Source: a virus (taxonomy: Duplodnaviria > Caudoviricetes). From it: DNA of 50,593 bases. The stretch is from positions 1 to 50,593 of the IMG/VR virus record IMGVR_UViG_3300046374_000030; one strand, 5' to 3'. The position numbers and the translations under genes were made by a program. Shown one piece after another: positions 7,072 through 27,870 of this stretch. The notes below the pieces were generated by a model that had not been told where the DNA came from, ran no database searches, and saw nothing but the letters and a program-made list of their open reading frames with translations. How positions within the stretch are numbered: the first letter of the stretch is position 1; every line of letters begins with the position of its first letter.

Positions 7072-9048
7072 TGGGATTCCTGCTGGCGGTCCTGTTGTGG
7101 ACGGTGTTCTGGATCATCATCACGCTGATGGTGGGACTGACCAGGAGGCCGCGGTGAAGGGCTGGACCCCGAAATGGCTGCCGCTGGTTTCCGAGCGGGA
7201 GCTTTTGGACCGGCTGGGCGCCGCGTTGAGCCTGTATCACATGCTCGAGGACCGGGTGGGGGATCTGGAGGCCGCGCTCAAGGATGCCGGGGTGCCGATC
7301 CCCACCGGCCGTAGTGAGCAGGATCGTCGTGACCGCACTGAGCGGGGTATTCGGGAATTTTTTCCGGAATATCTGGATGAGTGGCGGGCCCGGCATCCGC
7401 GCCCCGAGGAAAGGACGTGGCCGGAATGACTGACGATTATCTGCAGTACGCCCATGAGCCCGCCGACATCGAGAAGATACTGCGGGATGCTGGTCACCAC
7501 CCGCCGCCCGAGTCGCACGAGGTTCGCATCGCTTCGCCGGAGGAGTTCCTCTTGATGCGGCGCCGCGAGGCCGAGCAGATGCAGGCGGAGAGGACGCAGG
7601 CGCTGGCACGGCTGCAGGCGGCGTTGGAGGAGGCGGTGAAGCGTGTCCTCGACGTGAGCGATGTTCAGCTCGCCGCCCTCACCATGAACATCTTCTTGTG
7701 CTTCGACGACGCGGGCCTGGGCTTGTACGTGAAGGATCAGCCATGAGGCTGCGGTGCCTGTTCGGGCTGCACGAATGGGAGCCGGCCGGTGAGGTGGCGC
7801 CGCCGCCGGAGTGGCAGCACCCGCCGTGGATCGAATTTGAGAACGCGTTCGGGCGCCCAGCGGCGAAGCCGCAGTGGAAGGGGCTGCCCACCTTCCACCT
7901 CAAGCAGTGCGTGCACTGCCCCGCAAGCAGCTACGACATGGTCTGGCCGGAAGGGACGGTGCCGCCGCTATGAGCGGGATACAGGGATATCGTTGCGGCA
8001 CTTGCGGTTTCGAGAGCATGAGCCTGAAGAACCTGGCGTGTGGGCACTGGTCGCGCTGCCCGCACTACGCGGCCGCTGAGCAAGCCGGGACGCTGCCACC
8101 CGTATCGGAGCGGCCAGGAAGCGACGTGCCCTACCGATGACCCATTCGATTCACCGGGTGCAGGTGGAGATCACCGACTATCAGGAGCTGGACCTGACCG
8201 GGCCGCCGATCTTCGTGGCCGCTGACCGGGGCGGCGACCCGGAAGTGTTCGACTTGTGGTTCGAGCATTACGACGAATCCGCGCGTGAGCAGCACCGCAG
8301 CTACCACCTGTATGTGATCGGCACCGGCAACCCGGTGCCGTGGACGACGCCCGCCGTGCGCAGCGTGAGCTTCGATTTCCTGGGCAGCGTGATCACCACC
8401 GTCAACCAGGTGTGGCACGTCTACACCGGGCCGCAGCGGGACCTGCTGTGAGCGGGCAGCTCGCCCCGGATGGCTGGTCGGGTACCGAGGTTCACGCCGT
8501 GGGCGGCGGGGAGACGGATCTGTTCGTCGGCCGACCGAAGGTGTTTTTCCTGGCGTTCTGCGTGACGTGCTGGCCGGACCGGTGGGCGCCGATGCCGTTC
8601 GGGTCTGAGATTGAGCGGGACAAGTGGGCCGGTGAGCACCTGTCCGGGCCGTTGTCTAGGGATCACGAGGTGCAATGTTTCGTCGAGGTGCGGACGTGAC
8701 CGACAAGGTGGAGCTGGTCGGCACCATGCTGGCGCACACCCTGCTGGGGGTGGAGATGCTGCACCGTGAAGCCGGCGATTGGGATTACGCGGAAAGCTAC
8801 GGCGGGCGGTTGTTTAGGACGATGGGGCATCTGCGCGCCGCCTGCGACGAGTTCCGTCTAGCCCAGGAAGTGAGGCCCGCTGATGGGTGATGTTCTAGCC
8901 GAGTCGACGTGTAAGCACTGCGCCCAGCCGATCCGCAAGATCGCGCAGCATCGTCTCGATGAGGGCTTGTGGTATCACTTCGACGGGCACCGCGCGGTCC
9001 GCGAGTGCCGCTACCTGATGGCCGAACCCGTCGAACAGGAGGCCGTCG

Positions 9049-9456
9049 ATGACTGAGATTTTGCGGCGCGACCGCCTCGACGTGAAGGCGATGCACGAAC
9101 GGTTCGGCCAGTATTGGTCCAAGCCGAAGCCGCTGGTGATGGACGGGCTTGAATCTGAGGACTGCTGGGTGTTCTTCGGGCCCGGCGGGGCGAAGGTGTT
9201 CGTGTCCTACGACCCTGATAGCGAGCCCGGGGTGGAGTGGATTCACGCTTCGATGAGTTACGAGCTGAGCTACCGCTACCCCAGTTACATGGACCTGAAA
9301 ACCATGCACCGCGCGGTGTTCGGCGACGGGCACTCCTACCAGGTGTTCGTGCCGCCCGACGAGCACATCAACATCACCTCCAACGTGTTGCATTTGTGGG
9401 GCCGGCTGGACGGCAAGTCGGCGCTGCCCAACTTCGGCTGGCAGGGGACGATATGA
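9049..9456 (+). CDS. Phage hypothetical protein (WIHASMS...INITSNVLHLW)
   Basis: GGAGG RBS; W-x-H-x-S ... Q-V-F ... H-I-N ... LHLW pattern typical of a widespread small phage protein family. Confidence 0.7.
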   Translation: MTEILRRDRLDVKAMHERFGQYWSKPKPLVMDGLESEDCWVFFGPGGAKVFVSYDPDSEPGVEWIHASMSYELSYRYPSYMDLKTMHRAVFGDGHSYQVFVPPDEHINITSNVLHLWGRLDGKSALPNFGWQGTI

Positions 9457-19379: not shown

Positions 19380-20149
19380 CCCGCCGCAAACCGCCGGCCA
19401 CGGTGTGCATCCCGTGGCGGCCCAGCCCCTCACGGATGGACGCCTACCACCGGGTGCTGGAGTTCTGGTGGAAAACCGGGTGGCCGGTGATCCCCGCCGA
19501 CTCGGACACCGAAATCTTCTCCCTGTCGCAGGCCCGCAATAACGCTGTCGCGCAAGCGAAAACAGATGTGGTGGTGATCTGTGACGCCGACACCATCCCC
19601 GACATGACCAACATCCGTGCCGCGGTCGCCGACCCGGTCGGGGTGTGCTGGCCGTTCACGAAATACCGGGTTCTGGCGCCGGAATACCTCGACGTGCCGT
19701 TCAAAAAGTTGGCTGACGTGCCCTACCTCTACGAGTGGGGCGGTGACGGCGCGAACGGGGTGGGCGGCTGCCTGGTCGCCACCACCAGGGAATACTGGCG
19801 CCTCGGCGGGCAGGACCCGGCGTTCATCGGCTGGGGGCACGAAGACACCGCGTTCACCTTCGTCGTGGAAACCCTGTCCACGCTGCGCCGCAGCCCCGGC
19901 AACATCTACGCCTTCGAACACAACACGTCGGCGGTCGGTTACACCGGCGCCAAAGCCGACAGCCCCGGCTGGGACCGCGACTACGGCCGCAACGAGGCGC
20001 TGATGGTGCCCTACCGCACCGCGCGGCACCGGGCGTGGCTGATGCGGGAAGTCATCAAAAACCGCACCGGGCAGGACCCGCTGGGCGACGCGCCGAACCG
20101 CGGTGATCCCGAACTGAACAAGGCTCTGCTGGGAAGATACAAACCATGA
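19376..20149 (+). CDS. Glycosyltransferase (GT2/galactosyltransferase-like)
   Basis: VCIPWR, FSLSQARNNAV, VVICDADT (DxD), GGQDPAFIGWGHED. Confidence 0.85.
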   Translation: MTRRKPPATVCIPWRPSPSRMDAYHRVLEFWWKTGWPVIPADSDTEIFSLSQARNNAVAQAKTDVVVICDADTIPDMTNIRAAVADPVGVCWPFTKYRVLAPEYLDVPFKKLADVPYLYEWGGDGANGVGGCLVATTREYWRLGGQDPAFIGWGHEDTAFTFVVETLSTLRRSPGNIYAFEHNTSAVGYTGAKADSPGWDRDYGRNEALMVPYRTARHRAWLMREVIKNRTGQDPLGDAPNRGDPELNKALLGRYKP

Positions 20150-21071: not shown

Positions 21072-21251
21072 GTGAACGAGGCGCAGCACCGCGCTTCGAT
21101 CAAGGTGGCCGAGGCGCGAAACTGTGTGCACCGCCTCGCATCTGATCTCAGCGAGGCCGAACGCAGGCTCAAACGCGCCGAAGCCAGATTGCGGCGAGAG
21201 ATCCGACTGGACCCCGACGCCTACGCGCAGATTACGGCGGTGAGCGGATGA
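21072..21251 (+). CDS. Small coiled-coil hypothetical protein
   Basis: GTG start after AGGA, heptad-like sequence. Confidence 0.5.
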   Translation: MNEAQHRASIKVAEARNCVHRLASDLSEAERRLKRAEARLRREIRLDPDAYAQITAVSG

Positions 21252-21252
21252 G

Positions 21253-21283
21253 GGTGTCCACCAACGGACACCGCCGCTACACT
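21253..21283 (+). promoter_or_regulatory. Promoter of tRNA block 1 with overlapping GGTGTCC-N6-GGACACC operator
   Basis: Palindrome 21253-21272; -10 TACACT 21278-21283, followed 7 nt later by GTG at 21291 (leaderless geometry). Confidence 0.6.
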
Positions 21284-21290
21284 GTGTGAC

Positions 21291-21344
21291 GTGCACGCCC
21301 GCCGATTACTGCGATCACGTTCCTCCTTGCGACTTAGTCGCTAA
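21291..21344 (+). CDS. Leader peptide 1 (MHARRLLRSRSSLRLSR) for the Ser/Leu tRNA block
   Basis: Leu codons TTA, CTG, TTG, CTT and Ser codons TCA, TCC, TCC, AGT; stops 3 nt before tRNA-Ser. Confidence 0.7.
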   Translation: MHARRLLRSRSSLRLSR

Positions 21345-21347
21345 CCA

Positions 21348-21430
21348 GGAGGGTGATCCCGGCCGGGCTGGGGCTTCTCTGCTAAGGAATGCGCGGCATT
21401 GTCCGTGGTGTCCGACTCACCCGCCCTCCG
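21348..21430 (+). tRNA. tRNA-Ser(GCT)
   Basis: Acceptor GGAGGGT/GCCCTCC, loop CT-GCT-AA, long variable arm, atypical T loop. Confidence 0.75.
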
Positions 21431-21434
21431 CTGA

Positions 21435-21521
21435 GGAAGATGAAGCAGTGGCGAGTGCCGCGACCGGCGTCGAATACCGGGTCCGCTTAACCGCGGTGGG
21501 GATCAAGACCTCCGTCTTCCA
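21435..21521 (+). tRNA. tRNA-Ser(CGA), atypical
   Basis: Acceptor GGAAGAT/GTCTTCC, loop GT-CGA-AT, long variable arm, T loop ATCAAGA. Confidence 0.65.
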
Positions 21522-21525
21522 CGAA

Positions 21526-21599
21526 GCCGTCGTAGCCCAACCGGCAGAGGCACTGGTCCCAGAAGCCAGACAGTGCGGGTTCGAATCCCGCGGGCGGCA
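21526..21599 (+). tRNA. tRNA-Leu(CAG)
   Basis: CTGGT-CC-CAG-AA-GCCAG, GGTTCGAATCC, short variable loop. Confidence 0.85.
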
Positions 21600-21600
21600 C

Positions 21601-21674
21601 GCTCCCGTAGTCCAACCGGCAGAGGCAGCGGCATGAGGTGCCGTCCAGTGTGCGTTCGAATCGCACCGGGAGTA
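21601..21674 (+). tRNA. tRNA-Leu(GAG)
   Basis: GCGGC-AT-GAG-GT-GCCGT, TTCGAAT T loop. Confidence 0.85.
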
Positions 21675-21675
21675 C

Positions 21676-21749
21676 GCACCCTTAGCCCAAACGGGAGAGG
21701 CATCCGGCTCAAACCCGGTCCAGTCTCGGTTCGAATCCGAGAGGGTGTA
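21676..21749 (+). tRNA. tRNA-Leu(CAA)
   Basis: CCGG-CT-CAA-AC-CCGG, GGTTCGAATCC. Confidence 0.85.
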
Positions 21750-21750
21750 C

Positions 21751-21823
21751 GCGCTCCTAGCCCAACGGGAGAGGCAGCCGGTTTAAGCCCGGTCCAGTCT
21801 CGGTTCAAATCCGAGGGGGCGCA
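21751..21823 (+). tRNA. tRNA-Leu(TAA)
   Basis: GCCGG-TT-TAA-GC-CCGGT, GGTTCAAATCC. Confidence 0.85.
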
Positions 21824-22218
21824 CCCACCGTCATCTTGTAGGTGCGGATCGCGTCGCTGGAGGCGCGCATCATCAGCACCGCCTCATCGCGGCTGACCGC
21901 CGACCGGTTGCCGCCGACCTGCAACCAGAACTTGTCGGGGATCTGCGGGTGAATCCACACCCGCCAGCGCAGCTCCGGATGGTCAATCGAATGCATCGCG
22001 GCCAGCCAGCGTAACCGCTCCAACGGCGACGCACCCTCGGGGCAGGGCGGCTGGACGGTCGGCCCGTACGCCGGGTCGTCGGGATGAACCCACCGCAGCT
22101 GCGGCGGCTCATACTCGGCCAGCGCCGCGAAGAACGCCTGGTCGTCGCGCCGCGACTGACCCCACCGCTCGTCATCCGGCGCAACGGTCTCCCACTTCAG
22201 GCCCTGCGGTTGTGTCAT
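21805..22218 (-). CDS. Hypothetical protein inserted antisense within the tRNA array
   Basis: ATG at 22218 (MTQPQGLKWE...), 137 aa; stop lies antisense to the T arm of tRNA-Leu(TAA). Confidence 0.6.
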   Translation of the reverse strand: MTQPQGLKWETVAPDDERWGQSRRDDQAFFAALAEYEPPQLRWVHPDDPAYGPTVQPPCPEGASPLERLRWLAAMHSIDHPELRWRVWIHPQIPDKFWLQVGGNRSAVSRDEAVLMMRASSDAIRTYKMTVGAPPRI

Positions 22219-22222
22219 GCGT

Positions 22223-22423
22223 TTAGGCGACGCTGATGGAGCTGGCGGTGGTGGTGACGTTGCTTTCCCAGTGGTCTCCGCTGGTGACGCCTGAGACGCT
22301 TTTGAGCCAGTTGTGCAGTTGCAGCACGGTGCAGGGTGTGGTGAGTGCGGGGTGAGTGACGGGCCGGTGGGCCAGTTGTTCGGCGCTGGCTTTTTCTTCG
22401 GGCATGGGGTCATCATCGCCCAC
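22223..22423 (-). CDS. Small hypothetical protein in the same insert
   Basis: 66-aa ORF ending 4 nt before the next ATG. Confidence 0.5.
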   Translation of the reverse strand: MGDDDPMPEEKASAEQLAHRPVTHPALTTPCTVLQLHNWLKSVSGVTSGDHWESNVTTTASSISVA

Positions 22424-22498
22424 GGTGGATGTTGTGGGGTTGCGGCGCGCCGTGTCCTAGACGATGCAGCGTTCCACCCGGCGGCTCAGCAAACCCGA

Positions 22499-22527
22499 CA
22501 GTCTCGGTTCAAATCCGAGGGGCGCAC
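22499..22527 (+). repeat. Copy of the tRNA-Leu(TAA) 3' half (att-like direct repeat or tRNA remnant)
   Basis: CAGTCTCGGTTCAAATCCGAGGGGCGCAC matches 21795-21824 except for one missing G. Confidence 0.8.
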
Positions 22528-22542
22528 GCTACAATGACCACC

Positions 22543-22578
22543 ATGTTCTTCGCCCCACGACCGTATCCCTGGCGCTAG
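22543..22578 (+). CDS. Leader peptide 2 (MFFAPRPYPWR) for the Pro/Trp/Tyr tRNA block
   Basis: -10 TACAAT at 22530-22535, ATG 7 nt later; codons CCA, CCG, CCC, TAT, TGG. Confidence 0.7.
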   Translation: MFFAPRPYPWR

Positions 22579-22611
22579 CCGCCCGGTCGTGACAACACGC
22601 CCGGGATCAAA

Positions 22612-22685
22612 CCGGGTGTAGGCCAACTTGGTAGGCCACCTGCTTTGGGAGCAGGAGACTGGGCGTTCGAATCGCTCCTCCCGGA
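22612..22685 (+). tRNA. tRNA-Pro(TGG)
   Basis: CCTGC-TT-TGG-GA-GCAGG, GTTCGAATC. Confidence 0.85.
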
Positions 22686-22689
22686 CGAA

Positions 22690-22761
22690 GGGGACTTCGC
22701 CAAGTGGGAAGGCAGCGGCTTCCAAACCCGCCACGACTGGGTTCGATTCCTAGAGTCCTCG
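22690..22761 (+). tRNA. tRNA-Trp(CCA)
   Basis: GCGGC-TT-CCA-AA-CCCGC, GGTTCGATTCC, G73. Confidence 0.8.
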
Positions 22762-22762
22762 C

Positions 22763-22843
22763 GCCGGCACATCCCATGTGGTGAGGGAAGCAGACTGTAA
22801 ATCTGTGGCTTCGGCTGTGTAGGTTCGACCCCTGCTGCCGGTA
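22763..22843 (+). tRNA. tRNA-Tyr(GTA)
   Basis: GCAGA-CT-GTA-AA-TCTGT, variable arm GGCTTCGGCT. Confidence 0.85.
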
Positions 22844-23032
22844 CGATCAGCGCAGCAGAGATGGGCGCCTGCCACGCGGCCCGGCTACGATTCCTGGGCT
22901 TCACCGTGATCCCTCGTCGGGGAGATGCCCACCCGGTACGATCAACGAGCAGAGATGGGCGCCTGCCATTGAAAGCCAGCCGGGTAACCGTGACGTGGTC
23001 GTAGGTGATCCCCCAGCGGGGAGACGCCCGCC
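22838..23032 (+). repeat. Tandem duplicated promoter/leader unit, each copy starting ATG-GGC-GCC-TGC-CAY
   Basis: Two units of about 95 bp: CCGGTACGATCA..AGCAGAGATGGGCGCCTGCCA...GTGATCCC..GGGGAGA(T/C)GCCC. Confidence 0.8.
22955..22972 (+). CDS. Leader peptide 3 (MGACH) for the Cys/His/Gly/Ala tRNAs
   Basis: ATG GGC GCC TGC CAT TGA downstream of TACGAT (22937-22942). Confidence 0.6.
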   Translation: MGACH

Positions 23033-23085
23033 TACGAAAAATGGGTGGACCGAACGCGGGCCAACCGTTTACCGTGGTACACAGT

Positions 23086-23156
23086 GCGCTGGTGACCGAG
23101 TGGTCAGGTGGCAGGCTGCAAACCTGTTCAGGCTGGTTCGATTCCAGTCCGGCGCT
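23086..23156 (+). tRNA. tRNA-Cys(GCA)
   Basis: GCAGG-CT-GCA-AA-CCTGT, U73. Confidence 0.9.
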
Positions 23157-23157
23157 C

Positions 23158-23235
23158 GGTAGTCGTAGCTCAATGCGGCAGAGCGCCGGGATGTGGCCCC
23201 GGAGGTTGAGGGTTCGGACCCCTTCGATTACCCCA
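23158..23235 (+). tRNA. tRNA-His(GTG)
   Basis: CCGGG-AT-GTG-GC-CCCGG, G-1/C73, encoded CCA. Confidence 0.9.
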
Positions 23236-23306
23236 GCGGGTGTGGCGTAGTGGCCGCGCACCAGACTTCCAATCTGGCAACGCAGGTTCGATTCCTGTCA
23301 TCCGCT
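23236..23306 (+). tRNA. tRNA-Gly(TCC)
   Basis: CCAGA-CT-TCC-AA-TCTGG, U73. Confidence 0.9.
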
Positions 23307-23385
23307 CGACATCGCCCTCGTGGTCGCCAGAGGAGTAAGGCTGGTCAATCCGCGTAAAGCCGAGGCGAAGCTAATATCGGCACCT

Positions 23386-23458
23386 GGGGTTGTAGCTCAG
23401 CTGGTAGAGCGCCTGCCTTGCAAGCAGGAGGCCCGGGGTTCGATTCCCCGCTGCTCCA
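23386..23458 (+). tRNA. tRNA-Ala(TGC)
   Basis: CCTGC-CT-TGC-AA-GCAGG, G3:U70. Confidence 0.92.
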
Positions 23459-23459
23459 C

Positions 23460-23532
23460 GCCTTGATAGCTCAGTTGGTAGAGCGCCCGCCTGAAGAGTG
23501 GGAGGCCCGAGGTTCGATCCCTCGTCCTGGCA
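23460..23532 (+). tRNA. tRNA-Phe(GAA)
   Basis: CCCGC-CT-GAA-GA-GTGGG. Confidence 0.9.
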
Positions 23533-23536
23533 CTTG

Positions 23537-23608
23537 GCCCTGCTAGCTCAATGGGAGAGCGTCCGTTTCACACGCGGAAGGCACGAGGATCGTAACCTCG
23601 GTGGGGCA
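23537..23608 (+). tRNA. tRNA-Val(CAC)
   Basis: TCCGT-TT-CAC-AC-GCGGA, T loop ATCGTAA. Confidence 0.85.
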
Positions 23609-23609
23609 C

Positions 23610-23681
23610 GTCCTGTTAGCTCAGCGGCAGAGCGCCGGCACGACACGCCGGAGGCCCGAAGTTCGATCCTTCGACGGGACA
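23610..23681 (+). tRNA. tRNA-Val(GAC)
   Basis: CCGGC-AC-GAC-AC-GCCGG (C33). Confidence 0.85.
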
Positions 23682-23682
23682 C

Positions 23683-23751
23683 ATGATGCGAACGCGAACC
23701 GATCAGGGGCGGCGAAAGCCGACACGTCGCCCTGATTCCGCGCGTCCGTAG
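23683..23751 (+). CDS. Leader peptide 4 (MMRTRTDQGRRKPTRRPDSARP) for the Lys/Thr/Gly/Asp tRNAs
   Basis: ATG 1 nt after tRNA-Val; codons ACG, ACC, ACA, AAG, GAT x2, GGG; stop inside tRNA-Lys (nt 8-10). Confidence 0.6.
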   Translation: MMRTRTDQGRRKPTRRPDSARP

Positions 23752-23817
23752 CTCAGTCGGTAGAGCTGTTGCCTCTTAAGCATCAGGTCGAAGGTTCGAT
23801 CCCTTCCGGGCGCACCA
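23742..23817 (+). tRNA. tRNA-Lys(CTT)
   Basis: Loop CT-CTT-AA, encoded CCA. Confidence 0.9.
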
Positions 23818-23818
23818 G

Positions 23819-23893
23819 GCCGTTGTCGCACACGTTGGCTTGTGCACCTGCCTTGTAAGCAGACTTACGCGGGTTCGATTCCTGTCAGCGGCT
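23819..23893 (+). tRNA. tRNA-Thr(TGT)
   Basis: CTGC-CT-TGT-AA-GCAG, GGTTCGATTCC. Confidence 0.85.
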
Positions 23894-23941
23894 CGTTATG
23901 ATAAGCGCATCAGCGAAGCGCACCACGAAGGAAAGGCGATC

Positions 23942-24163
23942 ATGTCGCAGGAACAAGAGCAGGAAACGGCCAGCGCCGAGCAGCGACTGGAAGCCGACCC
24001 GGCGCTGGAGCCCGAGCTGGCGCACGAGCGCGACGAAGGTGCGGCCGAAGCAGCCGAAACCGCAGCCGAGGACGCGGCGTACTCCGGTTCCGGTGCGCTG
24101 TCGGCGTCCGCGGTCGCGGGCGCGGACGACGAAGCCGCGGACGAGGCCGCTGAGGACGCGTAG
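23942..24163 (+). CDS. Small highly acidic, Ala/Glu-rich protein
   Basis: GAAGGAAAGG RBS; MSQEQEQETA...DEAADEAAEDA, 73 aa. Confidence 0.7.
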   Translation: MSQEQEQETASAEQRLEADPALEPELAHERDEGAAEAAETAAEDAAYSGSGALSASAVAGADDEAADEAAEDA

Positions 24164-24193
24164 CTTGTCAGACCGTCGCCTTAAAGTTCGGGT

Positions 24194-24553
24194 GTGGCAA
24201 TCAGCCAAGCCAAAAAGACGCAGCAAGCCCGCTGGAGAAATGAGAACCGCACGTTCCTACGTCAGATCAATCGCAAACGACGCCTAGCGATCAAAGGTGA
24301 AGCTCTCGATCACTATGGATGGGAATGTGCGGAGTGCGGATTCGACAACCCAATGGCTCTCGTCATAGATCACGTCGATGACAACGGTGCGGATGAGCGG
24401 AGGGATTTAGGCGGGCGGCATTATGCGGGCTGGAACTTCTACAGCTACCTGAAGCGCCTCGGCTGGCCGGAGGGATATCAGACGCTTTGCGCGAACTGTA
24501 ACATGATCAAACAGCAGCTCAGGCTGCAAGGCACCTGTGGTCTAGCGGTATGA
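24194..24553 (+). CDS. HNH endonuclease
   Basis: CAECG...LVIDHVDDNG...YQTLCANCN; stop overlaps tRNA-Gly(GCC). Confidence 0.85.
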   Translation: MAISQAKKTQQARWRNENRTFLRQINRKRRLAIKGEALDHYGWECAECGFDNPMALVIDHVDDNGADERRDLGGRHYAGWNFYSYLKRLGWPEGYQTLCANCNMIKQQLRLQGTCGLAV

Positions 24554-24602
24554 CACCTGCTTGCCATGCAGGAGATCGCGGGTTCGATTCCCGTCGGGTG
24601 CT
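24531..24602 (+). tRNA. tRNA-Gly(GCC)
   Basis: CCTGC-TT-GCC-AT-GCAGG, U73. Confidence 0.9.
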
Positions 24603-24603
24603 C

Positions 24604-24616
24604 GTTGTTTGATAAC
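24604..24616 (+). promoter_or_regulatory. BoxA-like antitermination element
   Basis: GTTGTTTGATAAC resembles the mycobacterial rrn BoxA (GTTGTTTGAGAAC) and sits in an AT-rich tRNA spacer. Confidence 0.5.
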
Positions 24617-24629
24617 AACTAAACATCAT

Positions 24630-24701
24630 GGCTCTGTAGCTCAGTGGTAGAGCGCCGGCCCGTCAAGCCGGAGGTCGAGGGATCGTTCCCCTTCAGGGTC
24701 G
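24630..24701 (+). tRNA. tRNA-Asp(GTC)
   Basis: CCGGC-CC-GTC-AA-GCCGG (C33), G73, T loop ATCGTTC. Confidence 0.85.
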
Positions 24702-24702
24702 C

Positions 24703-24750
24703 ATGTTGATACGGGCGCGACGAATTAGGCAGCGGCGACAAAGCCGCTGA
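24703..24750 (+). CDS. Leader peptide 5 (MLIRARRIRQRRQSR) for the Ile/Arg/Arg/Arg/Gln tRNAs
   Basis: ATG 1 nt after tRNA-Asp; 11 of 14 codons after the start are Ile, Arg or Gln. Confidence 0.7.
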   Translation: MLIRARRIRQRRQSR

Positions 24751-24759
24751 TTTCGTCAT

Positions 24760-24831
24760 GCCCGTCTAGCTCACCGGTAGAGCACCGATCTGATAAGTCG
24801 TAGGCACCAGGTTCAATTCCTGGGTCGGGCA
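24760..24831 (+). tRNA. tRNA-Ile(GAT)
   Basis: CGAT-CT-GAT-AA-GTCG, GGTTCAATTCC. Confidence 0.85.
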
Positions 24832-24832
24832 C

Positions 24833-24907
24833 GCCTTCATAGCTCAGTCTGGACAGAGCACCGGTCTACGGAGCCGGGTGTCGCAGGTTCGAATCCTGCT
24901 GGGGGCA
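24833..24907 (+). tRNA. tRNA-Arg(ACG)
   Basis: CCGGT-CT-ACG-GA-GCCGG. Confidence 0.9.
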
Positions 24908-24908
24908 C

Positions 24909-25005
24909 GCCGCTGTGGCTGAACGGATAAGCGCCCGCCTCCTAAGCGGGTTAGGCAACCGGCTTCTACCCGGTGAATATGCAGGTTCGAATCCTGTCAG
25001 CGGCA
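24909..25005 (+). tRNA. tRNA-Arg(CCT) with a 30-nt variable region
   Basis: CCCGC-CT-CCT-AA-GCGGG; variable region 24951-24980. Confidence 0.8.
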
Positions 25006-25008
25006 CAA

Positions 25009-25079
25009 GCCTTCGCCAGCGGATCTGGCCCTGAGTTTCCGAAGCTCGGCGTGCGGTGGTTCGACTCCACTCGGGGGCA
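25009..25079 (+). tRNA. tRNA-Arg(CCG), atypical D arm
   Basis: CTGAGT-TT-CCG-AA-GCTCGG, GGTTCGACTCC; no U8/N9 linker. Confidence 0.7.
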
Positions 25080-25083
25080 CTGG

Positions 25084-25156
25084 TGAGCCGTTGGGTAACT
25101 GGCATCCCGCCGCGCTTTGGTCGCGGATATTGCACGTTCGAATCGTGCCGGCTCAG
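25084..25156 (+). tRNA. tRNA-Gln(TTG)
   Basis: U1:A72, CCGCG-CT-TTG-GT-CGCGG, G73. Confidence 0.85.
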
Positions 25157-25167
25157 CTATGCTGCTT

Positions 25168-25189
25168 GGGTGTCCATTCGCGGACACCC
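25168..25189. promoter_or_regulatory. Palindromic operator-like site GGGTGTCC-N6-GGACACCC
   Basis: Same half-sites and 6-nt spacer as the sites at 11642, 21253 and 37147. Confidence 0.55.
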
Positions 25190-25210
25190 CGAGCACGGAA
25201 GGAGCCTGAG

Positions 25211-25270
25211 ATGCGACAGCACAAACCGGAGCCTGAACGCATGAATCAGGCGTCCGTAGCTCAGCGGTAG
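25211..25270 (+). CDS. Leader peptide 6 (MRQHKPEPERMNQASVAQR) for the Lys/Glu/Glu/Asn/Gln/Met tRNAs
   Basis: RBS GGAAGGAG at 25197-25204; codons AAA, GAG, GAA, ATG, AAT, CAG; runs into tRNA-Lys. Confidence 0.7.
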   Translation: MRQHKPEPERMNQASVAQR

Positions 25271-25321
25271 AGCTGTTGCCTTTTAAGCATCAGGTCGGGG
25301 GTTCGATCCCCTCCGGGCGCA
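25250..25321 (+). tRNA. tRNA-Lys(TTT)
   Basis: Loop CT-TTT-AA; near-identical to tRNA-Lys(CTT). Confidence 0.9.
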
Positions 25322-25325
25322 CGCT

Positions 25326-25397
25326 GGTCCCATGAGGTAGCGGCTAGCCTGCGAGATTTTCACTCTCGTCGTTCGGGTTCGATTCCCGGTGGGACTG
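25326..25397 (+). tRNA. tRNA-Glu(TTC)
   Basis: CGAGA-TT-TTC-AC-TCTCG. Confidence 0.88.
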
Positions 25398-25412
25398 CGG
25401 AGGCGCGTTGTG

Positions 25413-25523
25413 ATGAAACGGCTCAAAGCTTTGCTGCGGCCGCACCTGTATTCGCTTTGGCGATGGACGTGGGCCGAGGACGAAGACGACGACGAAGACG
25501 ACGACGAAGCTGGATTGGTGTAA
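25413..25523 (+). CDS. 36-aa peptide with an acidic run between the two tRNA-Glu genes
   Basis: GGAGG RBS; MKRLKALLRPHLYSLWRWTWAEDEDDDEDDDEAGLV; stop inside tRNA-Glu(CTC). Confidence 0.5.
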   Translation: MKRLKALLRPHLYSLWRWTWAEDEDDDEDDDEAGLV

Positions 25524-25580
25524 CCGGGAGCACAGCGGATTCTCAGTCCGCCAGCGCGGGTTCGAGCCCCGTATCCAGTG
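25509..25580 (+). tRNA. tRNA-Glu(CTC)
   Basis: GCGGA-TT-CTC-AG-TCCGC. Confidence 0.88.
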
Positions 25581-25584
25581 CTGA

Positions 25585-25657
25585 TGGTCTGTAGCACAAC
25601 CGGCAGTGCGCTCGGCTGTTAACCGAGTGGTTGAAGGTTCGAATCCTTCCAGGCCAG
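25585..25657 (+). tRNA. tRNA-Asn(GTT)
   Basis: CTCGG-CT-GTT-AA-CCGAG, G73. Confidence 0.92.
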
Positions 25658-25661
25658 CGAA

Positions 25662-25733
25662 TGAGGTGTGGTCCAACCGGCACGACTCTGGGTTCTGGTC
25701 CCGGCAATCTAGGTTCAAATCCTGGCACCTCAG
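25662..25733 (+). tRNA. tRNA-Gln(CTG)
   Basis: U1:A72, CTGGG-TT-CTG-GT-CCCGG. Confidence 0.88.
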
Positions 25734-25737
25734 CGGA

Positions 25738-25813
25738 TGCAGGGTAGGGAAGTCTGGTCTATCCCTGCGGCCTCATAAGCCGTAAATCGCGGGTTCGAAT
25801 CCCGCCCCTGCAA
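25738..25813 (+). tRNA. tRNA-Met(CAT), initiator versus elongator uncertain
   Basis: GCGGC-CT-CAT-AA-GCCGT; fMet-like T arm, but paired U1:A72 and no full GGG/CCC run. Confidence 0.85.
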
Positions 25814-25817
25814 CGAG

Positions 25818-25973
25818 ATGGCCGGATTGACGGTGCGACTGATCACGCCACAGCCGCTGCCCAAGGCGGATGAATGGTGGGACGAGGTGACGCTGTGCCG
25901 GGTCGAGCGTGTCGACGAGGGCTACAGCTACACCGCCCGGCTGGACGGACGCAGGATTACGCGTAACGCGTAA
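25818..25973 (+). CDS. Small hypothetical protein
   Basis: 51-aa ORF MAGLTVRLITPQ... directly after tRNA-Met. Confidence 0.4.
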   Translation: MAGLTVRLITPQPLPKADEWWDEVTLCRVERVDEGYSYTARLDGRRITRNA

Positions 25974-26020
25974 TGCGACACGCCGCGGAAATGCTTGACA
26001 GCGTCCACGGCAAACTTGCG

Positions 26021-26059
26021 GCGTGTCTGCGCCGGCCACGGTAAACATCGCGTGACCAT
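26021..26059 (+). promoter_or_regulatory. Candidate late promoter upstream of the terminase operon
   Basis: GCGTGTC...CCACGGTAAAC-N7-GACCAT. Confidence 0.55.
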
Positions 26060-26065
26060 GACCTC

Positions 26066-26275
26066 GTGCGCGGGTTGTTGTGCGACGCGCTTGCTGCTGT
26101 CTTGAGGGCGCTGACCGCGCCGCTGAGGAAAGTCATCAGCGACGCGATCGCCGACGCCCGTGACCGCGCCACCCGCGAGGACATCGCCGCCGCGCTGGTG
26201 TCGGCGACGTGGACCGCCAAGGATGACGAGGCGTTCGACCAAGCGTTCGGCGAATATTTGCAGGAGCCGGAGTGA
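26066..26275 (+). CDS. Small hypothetical protein
   Basis: GTGA overlap with the TerL start. Confidence 0.5.
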   Translation: MRGLLCDALAAVLRALTAPLRKVISDAIADARDRATREDIAAALVSATWTAKDDEAFDQAFGEYLQEPE

Positions 26276-27870
26276 GCGCCGTCCTTGAGGCCGATCCCGA
26301 GGTCGGCTCCACGCTGCCACGGCTGTTCACCCCGCCGCTGCCCGAGCACGTCGACCCCGACGCCGAATGGGGCATCAAACCCGAAGCCACCTGGGGTCCG
26401 CTGTGCTGCGACTTTTTGGAACGCATCCTGAAATGGAAGCTGCTGCCCTGGCAGAAGTGGCTGTACTACCGGGCGCTGGAAAAGCGTAGGAACGGAACAG
26501 GTTTCAGGTTCCGCTACCTGATCGTGCTGGTGGCGCGGCAGAACGGGAAGACGAAGTGGGGGATGGGGCTGGGGCTGTGGCGGCTGTTCATGGACAAGCA
26601 CGGCCGCGCCGACCCGGATTGGCCGGCGGCCAAGCTCGCCGTCGTGGCGGCGCAGAACTTGGATTACGCCGAGACCACCCTCAAGGAAGTCGTCGACGAG
26701 ATCCGCGACCAGCCGCTGCTGGCGCCGGAACTGTTGAACCACAAGGTGACCAACGGCAAGCACCGCGCGATCCTGTCGTATCGGCGGCTGTGGCGCGCCG
26801 CGACAGCGAACAAGAAGGGGGCGCGGTCGCTGTCGGTGGATTTCGCGTGGCTCGACGAGCTGCGCACCCACACCACCCCGGACGCCTGGAACGCTGTCAC
26901 CCCGACCACCAACGTCCGCATCTGCGCGCAGGTGCTCGCCACCTCCAACGCCGGGGAAAACACCAGCGTCAAACTCAAGGAGCTGCGCCAGGCCGCGGTC
27001 CGCAAGATCACCGTCGGCGACACCGCCGACACGCAGACCGGGTTCTTCGAATGGAGCGTGCCCGACGAGGTGGACCCGCGCGACGACTCCTACTGGTATC
27101 TGGCGAATCCCGCGCTGGGGCTGCTCAACGAGTTCTGCCTGGACGATCTGCGGGCGCATTTCGAGACGATGGAAGCCGACGATATGCCCGGCTTCCGCAC
27201 CGAGTATCTGTGCCAGTGGGTGGACGCGCTCAAGCCCGGCATCCTGCCCGCGCAGGCGTGGGCCGACACCATCGACAAGGAATCGAAGCGGGCCGAGAAC
27301 TCGCCGGTGTACGCCTGCATCGAGTACAACTACCACCGCACCCGCGCCTACGTCGGGATCGCCGCCCGGCGCGCTGACGGCAAGACCCACATCGAAGTCC
27401 TCAAAACCCCGGCCAAGGGCGTCGACTGGCTCCCCGAATGGCTGCGCCCACGCAAAGAAAAGTTCGCCGGCATCTGCATCCAAAAGACCGGCGCGCCGGC
27501 TTCGGGGCTGGCTGACGATCTGCGGGCCCAGGGCTTCACGATCATCGACTGGGGCTCCCCGGTGGCGCAGCTCGCCGCCGGCGCCGGCGACTTCTACGAC
27601 GGGCTGGTCAACGGCACCATCAAACACCGGCCCGCCTTGGTGCTGGACAAGGCCGCCGCGTCCACCCCGGCCCGCACCATCGGCGACGCCTGGTTTTTCG
27701 ACCGCCGCCACTCCCCGGTGGACGCGTCCCCGGTAATCGCGGTCTGCGGCGCGGCGTGGCTGCTGAACAACCCGCCGCCACCGGTCGGCCCGGCGACGGT
27801 GTGGGAATGGCCCGACGACGACACCCTCGACGAATGGCGGAAGGAAGCCGATGACCGATTCAACGAGTAA
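26272..27870 (+). CDS. terL: Terminase large subunit
   Basis: LLPWQ, Walker A VARQNGKT, Walker B FAWLDELR, TSNAG, FFEWS, ANPALG, C-terminal nuclease (VDA). Confidence 0.95.
   Translation: MSAVLEADPEVGSTLPRLFTPPLPEHVDPDAEWGIKPEATWGPLCCDFLERILKWKLLPWQKWLYYRALEKRRNGTGFRFRYLIVLVARQNGKTKWGMGLGLWRLFMDKHGRADPDWPAAKLAVVAAQNLDYAETTLKEVVDEIRDQPLLAPELLNHKVTNGKHRAILSYRRLWRAATANKKGARSLSVDFAWLDELRTHTTPDAWNAVTPTTNVRICAQVLATSNAGENTSVKLKELRQAAVRKITVGDTADTQTGFFEWSVPDEVDPRDDSYWYLANPALGLLNEFCLDDLRAHFETMEADDMPGFRTEYLCQWVDALKPGILPAQAWADTIDKESKRAENSPVYACIEYNYHRTRAYVGIAARRADGKTHIEVLKTPAKGVDWLPEWLRPRKEKFAGICIQKTGAPASGLADDLRAQGFTIIDWGSPVAQLAAGAGDFYDGLVNGTIKHRPALVLDKAAASTPARTIGDAWFFDRRHSPVDASPVIAVCGAAWLLNNPPPPVGPATVWEWPDDDTLDEWRKEADDRFNE

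Follow-up and report, generated by a model that had tools for sequence, protein, structure and literature searches.

Attenuators of the thrL, ilvL and trpL type carry codons for several amino acids in a short leader and switch between mutually exclusive RNA structures. T-box riboswitches monitor tRNA supply codon by codon; the tRNA itself binds to them, and no ribosome takes part. In mycobacteria, the polycysteine leaderless sORF attenuators exemplified by Ms5788A respond to one amino acid and act on the Shine-Dalgarno site of a protein-coding gene (bioRxiv 10.1101/834739). At the level of tRNA processing, a synthetic RNase P riboswitch responsive to theophylline works by masking the single-stranded 5′ leader of a pre-tRNA, and precursor left unprocessed is reported to be degraded rapidly (PMC7897497). 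Groups of tRNA genes are called array units when they contain at least 20 tRNA genes at a density of at least two per kb (PMC5966550), and, according to one published answer to why phages carry such arrays, they make up for tRNAs that host defences have cut (PMC12409363).

Here we present a computational analysis of a short frame, leader 5, that stands in front of five tRNA genes within an array of this kind. The array is part of a 50.6-kb virus record, the whole of which was analysed and is referred to here as the window. Its codons and its relatives lead us to conclude that leader 5 is very probably a translated, codon-sensing leader. With more reserve, folding models favour a lock in which the leader 5 RNA sequesters the acceptor strand of tRNA-Ile, and a stalled ribosome frees the tRNA to fold and mature.

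The tRNA array and its setting

Terminase, portal, protease and capsid genes follow one another in the window from 26272 onward. The terminase shares about 50% identity with the terminases of the Mycobacterium phages Hilltopfarm, Nadezda and Typha, and mycobacteria are therefore the likely hosts of this phage. Directly upstream of the terminase region lies the tRNA array, with 28 genes under default ARAGORN settings (21526–25814) and three more, Ser(GCT), Ser(CGA) and Arg(CCG), at a lower threshold. By gene number and density it falls within the published definition of a tRNA array unit (PMC5966550) and, like the units described from mycobacteria, phages and plasmids, it packs more than 30 tRNA genes into 4.5 kb with an HNH gene inside (PMC5966550, PMC12803027). 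All 27 Rfam matches in the window are tRNAs, the T-box covariance model finds no match there, and a search of 22830–23400 at a relaxed Rfam threshold gave tRNAs only.

Terminase and motif searches recovered further distinct arrays in L001, L002, L005 and G001 (L003, L007 and L019 repeat L002 with 0–1 differences and were counted once). Among the cultured phages and plasmids searched with the array, matches were confined to tRNA pieces with a coverage of at most 14%. No terminase relatives were found in GTDB contigs, and the DNA retrieved for terminase relatives L009–L017 contained no tRNA.

Several other features of the region were recorded. A 73-codon acidic frame inside the array (23943–24163) has no PHROG match and is kept in L001, which lacks the HNH endonuclease gene (24194–24553). 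A frame at 20146–20604 matches a PHROG labelled 'Rnase E' (label only); a gene with this label adjoins the terminase in Typha and Hilltopfarm, and in the window the tRNA array stands between the two. Pfam searches of 18 other window ORFs returned only methyl- and glycosyltransferase matches. Some 700 nt from Leu(TAA) to leader 2 (21825–22530), missing in L002, terminate in a sequence nearly identical to the 3′ half of tRNA-Leu(TAA), resembling a duplication from an integrated element. On the 3′ side of tRNA-Tyr, 22850–23045 holds two imperfect repeats of about 95 nt each that belong to no Rfam family and fold no better than shuffles; similar hairpin-rich spacers in L002 (6292–6409 and 7408–7483) have z-scores of −2.2 and −2.6. 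The Gly(TCC)–Ala spacer (23308–23385) looks structured, with neither a matching frame nor an Rfam match; L001 5025–5102 is nearly identical to it, and L002 6630–6718 and G001 carry a related type. Finally, a 112-nt insert with an Asp/Glu-type triplet repeat (25399–25508) lies between Glu(TTC) and Glu(CTC) in the window, two genes that are adjacent in L001, L002 and L005.

Leader 5 and its codons

Leader 5 (MLIRARRIRQRRQSR, 24703–24750, on the plus strand like all window features given below) comprises 15 codons, from the ATG at 24703 to the TGA at 24748–24750, and is the single frame in the 57-nt spacer between tRNA-Asp and tRNA-Ile. Upstream it abuts tRNA-Asp(GTC) plus one C (24630–24702). 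Downstream, the block runs in the order Ile(GAT) (24760–24831), Arg(ACG) (24833–24907), Arg(CCT) (24909–25005), Arg(CCG) (about 25009–25079) and Gln(TTG) (25084–25156). The Ile and Arg(ACG) genes were called by both ARAGORN and Rfam and the Gln gene by ARAGORN. The gene of about 98 nt at 24909, which has a long variable arm, was found by Rfam and folding; ARAGORN gives it no assignment, and CCT was read from the folded anticodon loop. Arg(CCG) is atypical and low-scoring: default ARAGORN and Rfam miss it in the window, low-threshold ARAGORN finds it, its ends were set by eye, and the G001 copy is called by default ARAGORN. A DNA contig from a second soil study (run X2) reproduces 24627–24736 with 0 differences.

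In tRNA-Arg(CCT) the variable arm forms an additional 5-bp hairpin whose 7-nt loop has UCU at its centre, resembling a further Arg anticodon arm. A counterpart lies on the minus strand of L042 at about 3515–3438, and G001 has a tRNA-like gene with the same UCU hairpin and an almost absent D arm (by eye).

The original prediction described an Ile/Arg/Gln leader peptide, and the frame agrees with it, Arg, Ile and Gln making up 11 of the 14 inner codons (P = 4e-5). The sensing codons are ATT, AGG, CGG and CAA, and CGA occurs three times. With ACG set aside, leader 5 holds exact codons for 4/4 block anticodons, whereas the other two frames score 0 and 0; this match has P = 0.006 against shuffled letters and P = 2.5e-4 against phage codon usage, for which five long phage genes served as the reference. 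The assignment of ATT to Ile(GAT) is upheld by an exact, frame-specific match, as are those of AGG to Arg(CCT) and CGG to Arg(CCG) by exact codons. The assignment of CGA to Arg(ACG) does not survive: CGA is present in 23/23 leaders of the family described below, as against 1.7 per 1,000 codons in phage genes, and therefore gives no specific evidence for Arg(ACG). Considering I34 wobble, the basis for slow reading of CGA, this triplet would be a general slow codon. For Gln, CAA is exact for Gln(TTG) as had been claimed, but CAG is exact for Gln(CTG) of the next block and serves Gln(TTG) by wobble only.

Sister leaders and rearranged blocks

Leader 5 has four sisters in the window. Leader 1 (21291–21344) precedes Ser/Ser/Leu ×4 and leader 2 (MFFAPRPYPWR, 22543–22578) precedes Pro/Trp/Tyr, each with TANNNT 7 nt before its start codon (GTG and ATG, respectively). 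Leader 4 (23683–23751), before Lys(CTT)/Thr(TGT), has a frame that enters tRNA-Lys, and leader 6 (MRQHKPEPERMNQ..., 25211–25270), before Lys/Glu/Glu/Asn/Gln/Met, has a Shine-Dalgarno-type start. Together, the five leaders match 20/21 block anticodons. When leaders were permuted over blocks in the window, L001, L002 and G001, the true arrangement scored best among the 120 possible ones in all four genomes.

Because the five leaders had been picked by eye, all 19 frames starting before the nine contiguous blocks of the window were then listed, and the full or near-full matches among them were those of the five leaders. The best frame before Cys/His/Gly matched 2/3 anticodons within an 81-codon frame, the best before Ala/Phe/Val/Val matched 2/4 and that before Gly/Asp 0/2, and none of these counts as a leader. 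A matching frame directly in front is thus missing for 4/9 contiguous blocks, one of which falls under leader 6: the Glu/Asn/Gln/Met part, without a leader of its own, is covered by leader 6; L002 and L005 have it in one uninterrupted run with Lys/Glu, and in L001 Met is separated from the leader 6 block by a 369-nt insert. A conserved leader before Cys/His/Gly was considered and rejected, as the spacing is off by one base between the window and its relatives (by eye) and the conserved letters resemble −35/−10 boxes.

Post hoc, we observed that Phe-Phe-Ala codons open leader 2 in the window (22543–22554), L001 and L002, where Ala/Phe genes lie less than 1 kb downstream, and that leader 2 of G001, whose Ala/Phe block is more than 5 kb away, is without them.

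A homologue of leader 6 stands before a lone tRNA-Lys(TTT) on four M. avium plasmids, including pMAH135, so the design is not limited to uncultured DNA. In pMAH135 (L080), leader and tRNA-Lys(TTT) occupy 9000–9131 at the end of a conjugation-gene cluster and adjoin a phospholipase D-like gene on the opposite strand. In total, 23 leaders in six elements match 76/89 anticodons strictly and 83/89 with wobble. Homologous leaders are not independent trials, and evidential weight therefore falls on the rearrangements. In L001, L002 and L005 the leader-5 homologues have Ile and Arg(ACG) ahead of them and Arg(TCT) after them, and each has 0 Ile codons and 1 AGA, against 2 Ile codons and no AGA in leader 5 of the window. 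G001 regroups Asn, Gln(CTG), Arg(CCT), Gln(TTG) and Arg(CCG) into one block, whose leader contains AAT, CAG, AGG, CAA and CGG and misses 3/8 anticodons, namely Met, a doubtful Ile(TAT) and an atypical Arg(TCT). The pMAH135 leader before tRNA-Lys(TTT) has kept AAA, and GAG, GAA, ATG and AAT are gone.

The match is imperfect at the level of isoacceptors. TCG is absent before the Ser(CGA) blocks (3/3) and present before the Ser(TGA) block of G001, the Lys-only leader of G001 contains two Ile codons, AGG is retained in leader-5 homologues whether the Arg gene is CCT or TCT, and the plasmid leader retains CAG with no Gln gene. A 1,367-nt contig from an RNA library (run X16), used here as sequence evidence only, carries the 3′ part of a leader-5 homologue, Arg(TCT), Arg(CCG) and leader 6, and by its sequence is a further member of the leader family.

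Wider searches added no carriers. Against phages, leader 5 alone gave 7 short matches (E 2–8) and leader 6 gave 16, with no cultured carrier; the leader-5 region of L001 matched tRNAs only. In GTDB, the leader-6 pattern had 25 matches, none titled Mycobacterium, which from their titles were read as chance and rejected. Across 401 genomes of the PE-bearing genus (taken as Mycobacterium), the leader-6 pattern had 0 matches and the leader-5/tRNA pattern, with window-type spacing only, had 10, no excess over the reversed control. Among the 150 matches listed for the leader-5 block against 401 Actinomycetes genomes, all were single and tRNA-sized. Viral contigs with unrelated pattern matches and no array were dropped (L024, L026–L028, L030, L032, L034, L035, L038, L077 and L091), and by eye the array of pCBMA213_1 contains no such leaders.

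Signs of translation and start signals

Where leader frames enter a tRNA, their lengths vary by whole codons only: 59, 62, 59 and 62 nt for leader 4 (4/4), 52, 49 and 49 nt for the relatives of leader 5 (3/3) and 39, 42, 42 and 42 nt for leader 6 (4/4). Run contigs also show 3-nt indels in leaders 1 and 6. A TANNNT/CANNNT hexamer lies 6–7 nt before the start in 9/23 leaders, which thereby share the layout of mycobacterial leaderless genes (PMC4633059, PMC6448022), and six of the 23 have an AGGAG-type site, scored by eye.

The ATG of leader 5 has neither a −10-like hexamer nor a clear Shine-Dalgarno site (the latter judged by eye). It lies directly behind the tRNA-Asp discriminator plus C, the position at or near which the next tRNA usually begins (the gap is 2 nt in 24 cases and 5 nt in 30). 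Of 66 long trailers, 10 have a start codon at exactly this place, against a background of 4.5% (P = 8e-4), a count in which tRNA ends were anchored by the acceptor stem and related genomes, not independent of each other, were included. Three phages have leader 4 starting in this position; in G001 it comes with a −10 box of its own. We infer that the leader 5 message is created by tRNA 3′ processing. A 5′-terminal RTG has been called necessary for leaderless initiation (PMC4633059), and this makes the extra C before the ATG a problem; leaders of up to 5 nt have elsewhere been counted as leaderless (PMC6448022). As for transcription, a candidate −10 box (TANNNT, 23897–23902, by eye) lies behind tRNA-Thr and is likely to mark the promoter of a unit reaching leader 5; in the window, L001, L002 and G001 alike, a TANNNT box is followed by one conserved 13-mer (by eye).

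Longer frames, of 54–122 codons, also start behind discriminator plus C, after Val(CAC), Val(GAC) and Glu(CTC) of G001 and Arg(CCT) of L079; tRNA 3′ processing may thus be a more general source of leaderless messages.

A predicted lock on tRNA-Ile

The structure proposed in the original prediction was recovered in full. The 5′ arm (24711–24724, codons 3–8), which would act as the anti-acceptor strand, pairs at 13/14 positions with the 3′ arm (24752–24765), with one G-U pair and one C-A mismatch; the 3′ arm includes tRNA-Ile nucleotides 1–6 (24760–24765), and the 7-bp inner hairpin lies at 24730–24749. The leader 5 hairpin has a minimum free energy (MFE) of −35.9 kcal/mol (z = −6.17), and 0/200 shuffles were equally stable. 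The pairing of the 5′ arm is predicted to extend to tRNA nucleotides 8–11. The GGCGACAA core of the inner hairpin is invariant in 4/4 aligned homologues, and pair covariation on this 4-sequence alignment is weak, being reached by 15–189 of 500 shuffles.

In the folding model, pairing of the tRNA-Ile acceptor falls from 0.65 for the tRNA alone to 0.00 with leader 5. A 30-nt ribosome-sized mask on any of codons 2–10 brings it back to a predicted 0.50–0.65, in line with the proposal that a stalled ribosome covers the inhibitory strand. The proposal does not extend to codons 11–13, which include the only exact Gln codon, CAA, and at which the mask leaves acceptor values of 0.12, 0.01 and 0.00. The mask permits strands to pair around it, and that a real ribosome would prevent such pairing is an assumption. 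Pairing of leader 5 with the 5′ end of tRNA-Ile ranks 2 among 92 tRNA 5′ ends, and the pairing gain over shuffled leaders has P = 0.003.

In MFE folds of leader plus 12 tRNA letters, the upstream RNA pairs with the 5′ strand of the first tRNA in 23/23 leaders. Because such pairing comes easily to GC-rich RNA, two controls were run. Against shuffled leaders, the pairing gain reached P ≤ 0.05 in only 9/23 leaders; among the 92 tRNA 5′ ends, the native one was in the top tenth for 15/23 leaders versus 1/5 leader-free spacers. Predicted acceptor pairing drops to 0.05 or below in 16/23. The relatives of leader 5 have a weak lock at equilibrium, with acceptor values of 0.35, 0.65 and 0.60 versus 0.98–0.99 alone; when Ile is compared with their own Arg(TCT), pairing is equal in L001, better in L005 and weaker in L002. 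Their frames (L001, L002 and L005) end inside the tRNA, at nucleotides 12–14, so that an unstalled ribosome would proceed onto the acceptor strand. For leader 6, and for leader 2 in the window and L001, masking is mostly unsuccessful. A four-segment attenuator layout of leader 2 is predicted in L002 and G001 and absent in the window and L001.

From the first tRNA to the whole block

The single-tRNA lock accounts for tRNA-Ile only, whereas the codons of leader 5 cover the whole block. In two-tRNA folds, adding the leader lowered the second tRNA from 0.99 to 0.00 for leader 4, from 0.90 to 0.21 for leader 5 and from 0.98 to 0.05 for leader 6. A blocked first tRNA disturbed its native neighbour in 27/40 informative pairs and random partners in 107/206 (p = 0.08; 71 and 426 pairs were examined, respectively). 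Native neighbours thus do not clearly exceed random partners, and spread by misfolding is a generic effect that may operate here. Junction hairpins show no enrichment (0/20), and folding of whole blocks is unreliable, the model losing most cloverleaves even without a leader.

Alternatively, the same codon sensor could control a hairpin that serves as a pause or Rho-loading switch and ends transcription of the whole block. This would explain directly why the codons cover all tRNAs of the block, and in M. tuberculosis premature Rho-dependent termination at translated uORFs is common and intrinsic terminators are rare (bioRxiv 10.1101/2022.06.01.494293). We nevertheless consider it unlikely. Termination has no need of specific pairing with the acceptor strand, and behind every leader hairpin the sequence is that of a structured tRNA and not a U-tract, at least a partial stretch of U being needed for factor-independent termination (bioRxiv 10.1101/2022.06.01.494293). 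Four terminator-like sites lie in 21150–26300, none of which closes a leader. Intrinsic termination was thus rejected, and classical attenuation fails its defining test. For the remainder of the block beyond tRNA-Ile, Rho-dependent polarity is, by analogy, the main alternative.

The mask also frees tRNA-Ile, in prediction, at codons that sense nothing in the block. This is what would be expected if any ribosome traffic opened the hairpin, tying tRNA maturation to general translation with the codon match incidental, and CGA, rare in phage genes and common to every leader, points the same way. Such a link is improbable, however, because the match is specific to each block, gives the best of the 120 permutations in 4/4 genomes and follows rearrangements. 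More improbable still is an untranslated processing stem, with the hairpin serving for nuclease cleavage or as a spacer and no ribosome ever reading the frame. The bare ATG at 24703, with no −10 box or clear Shine-Dalgarno site, and the great stability of the hairpin would suit it, but a permanently formed stem that destroys the acceptor would do harm, and the frame-preserving indels, the match in one frame only (0 and 0 in the others) and the start signals of the sister leaders all speak for translation. That the peptide itself is the product, as an Arg-rich RNA-binding micro-protein with RNA pairing secondary, is hardly credible: Arg does make up 7/15 residues and the homologues share an Arg-Arg-Gln end, yet the sister-leader peptides are unrelated and track their tRNA blocks, lengths and C-termini vary, and rare codons occur.

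Proposed mechanism and its meaning

The lock on tRNA-Ile would operate as follows. A unit would be transcribed from the putative promoter behind tRNA-Thr, and 3′ processing of tRNA-Asp would leave an RNA starting (C)AUG, to be translated as a leaderless message. If the ribosome moves fast and is released at the TGA, the 20-bp hairpin would form, as predicted by folding, leaving tRNA-Ile without an acceptor stem; it would then escape RNase P cleavage and decay. A ribosome stalled at ATT, AGG or CGG, with CGA acting as a general slow codon, would cover the 5′ arm and allow the cloverleaf to form. In the least supported step, the off state would spread to the other four tRNAs through misfolding passed on from gene to gene together with decay, or through Rho. 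The net effect would be negative feedback, the tRNA block being supplied when its codons are read slowly. In this model, what the switch probably controls is whether the first tRNA folds and matures; RNase P can separate the tRNAs of polycistronic precursors in E. coli (PMC2190699).

We tentatively extend this to the array, which might be a panel of self-regulating modules. Mini-genes made of a block's own codons would lock the first acceptor stems, unlocking would pass down each block with no terminator, and processing of one tRNA would create the leaderless message of the next block, so that the phage matures only the isoacceptors that are depleted. If true, the phage would gauge, isoacceptor by isoacceptor, the loss of host tRNAs by starvation or by a tRNA-cleaving defence. 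A codon-matched lock in front of each block would make the idea that phage arrays replace cut tRNAs directly testable. It would, moreover, provide a natural example of tRNA maturation governed by the ribosome, for which the sole precedent found is synthetic: titles and abstract openings in the literature, mostly outside subscription papers, yielded no leader-peptide control of tRNA genes or of tRNA folding. A reporter built on it in M. smegmatis could report the supply of a single isoacceptor.

Comparison with known systems

Like leader-peptide transcription attenuators in general, leader 5 is a short frame rich in the codons of the genes it would regulate. With thrL, ilvL and trpL it shares the presence of several amino acids' codons in one short leader. 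A choice between exclusive structures by ribosome position is a prediction only, from the mask on leader 5 and from the four-segment layout of leader 2 in L002 and G001. Leader 5 differs in that neither it nor the other window leaders have a U-tract intrinsic terminator, and in what lies downstream, which is tRNA genes and not an operon for amino-acid biosynthetic enzymes or synthetases. Unlike in those systems, the signal would be tRNA supply itself, with the product closing the loop. T-boxes sense the tRNA by direct, ribosome-free binding, whereas the leader 5 model needs a ribosome. Short leader frames such as those of the window are not mentioned in the parts of PMC5966550 covered here, and the words 'leader', 'promoter' and 'small ORF' have 0 occurrences in the corresponding text of PMC12803027.

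The synthetic theophylline switch resembles the proposed lock in placing the processing of a pre-tRNA under the control of an RNA switch upstream of it (PMC7897497). It is man-made, driven by a ligand and independent of the ribosome, and the element that it hides is the 5′ leader, whereas leader 5 would hide the acceptor strand (PMC7897497). The likeness to Ms5788A is in the sensing half: in both, the strand pairing with the target downstream contains the sensed codons (in leader 5, by prediction), a stalled ribosome blocks the pairing (for leader 5, in the model), there is no intrinsic terminator, and polar effects on further genes come into consideration (bioRxiv 10.1101/834739). The target in leader 5 is a tRNA acceptor strand in place of a Shine-Dalgarno site, its codons cover three amino acids and five isoacceptors instead of one amino acid, and it has no poly-Cys tract, nor indeed any Cys codon (10.1101/834739). 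Leader 5 also has no promoter of its own, unlike Ms5788A (10.1101/834739); a −10-like hexamer 6–7 nt before the start codon is seen in 9/23 leaders, all of them its sisters. Leader 5 thus appears to work like Ms5788A but, judged by these features, is outside both the Ms5788A and the trpL/thrL families. By analogy, Ms5788A and the synthetic RNase P switch are precedents for the two halves of the leader 5 model.
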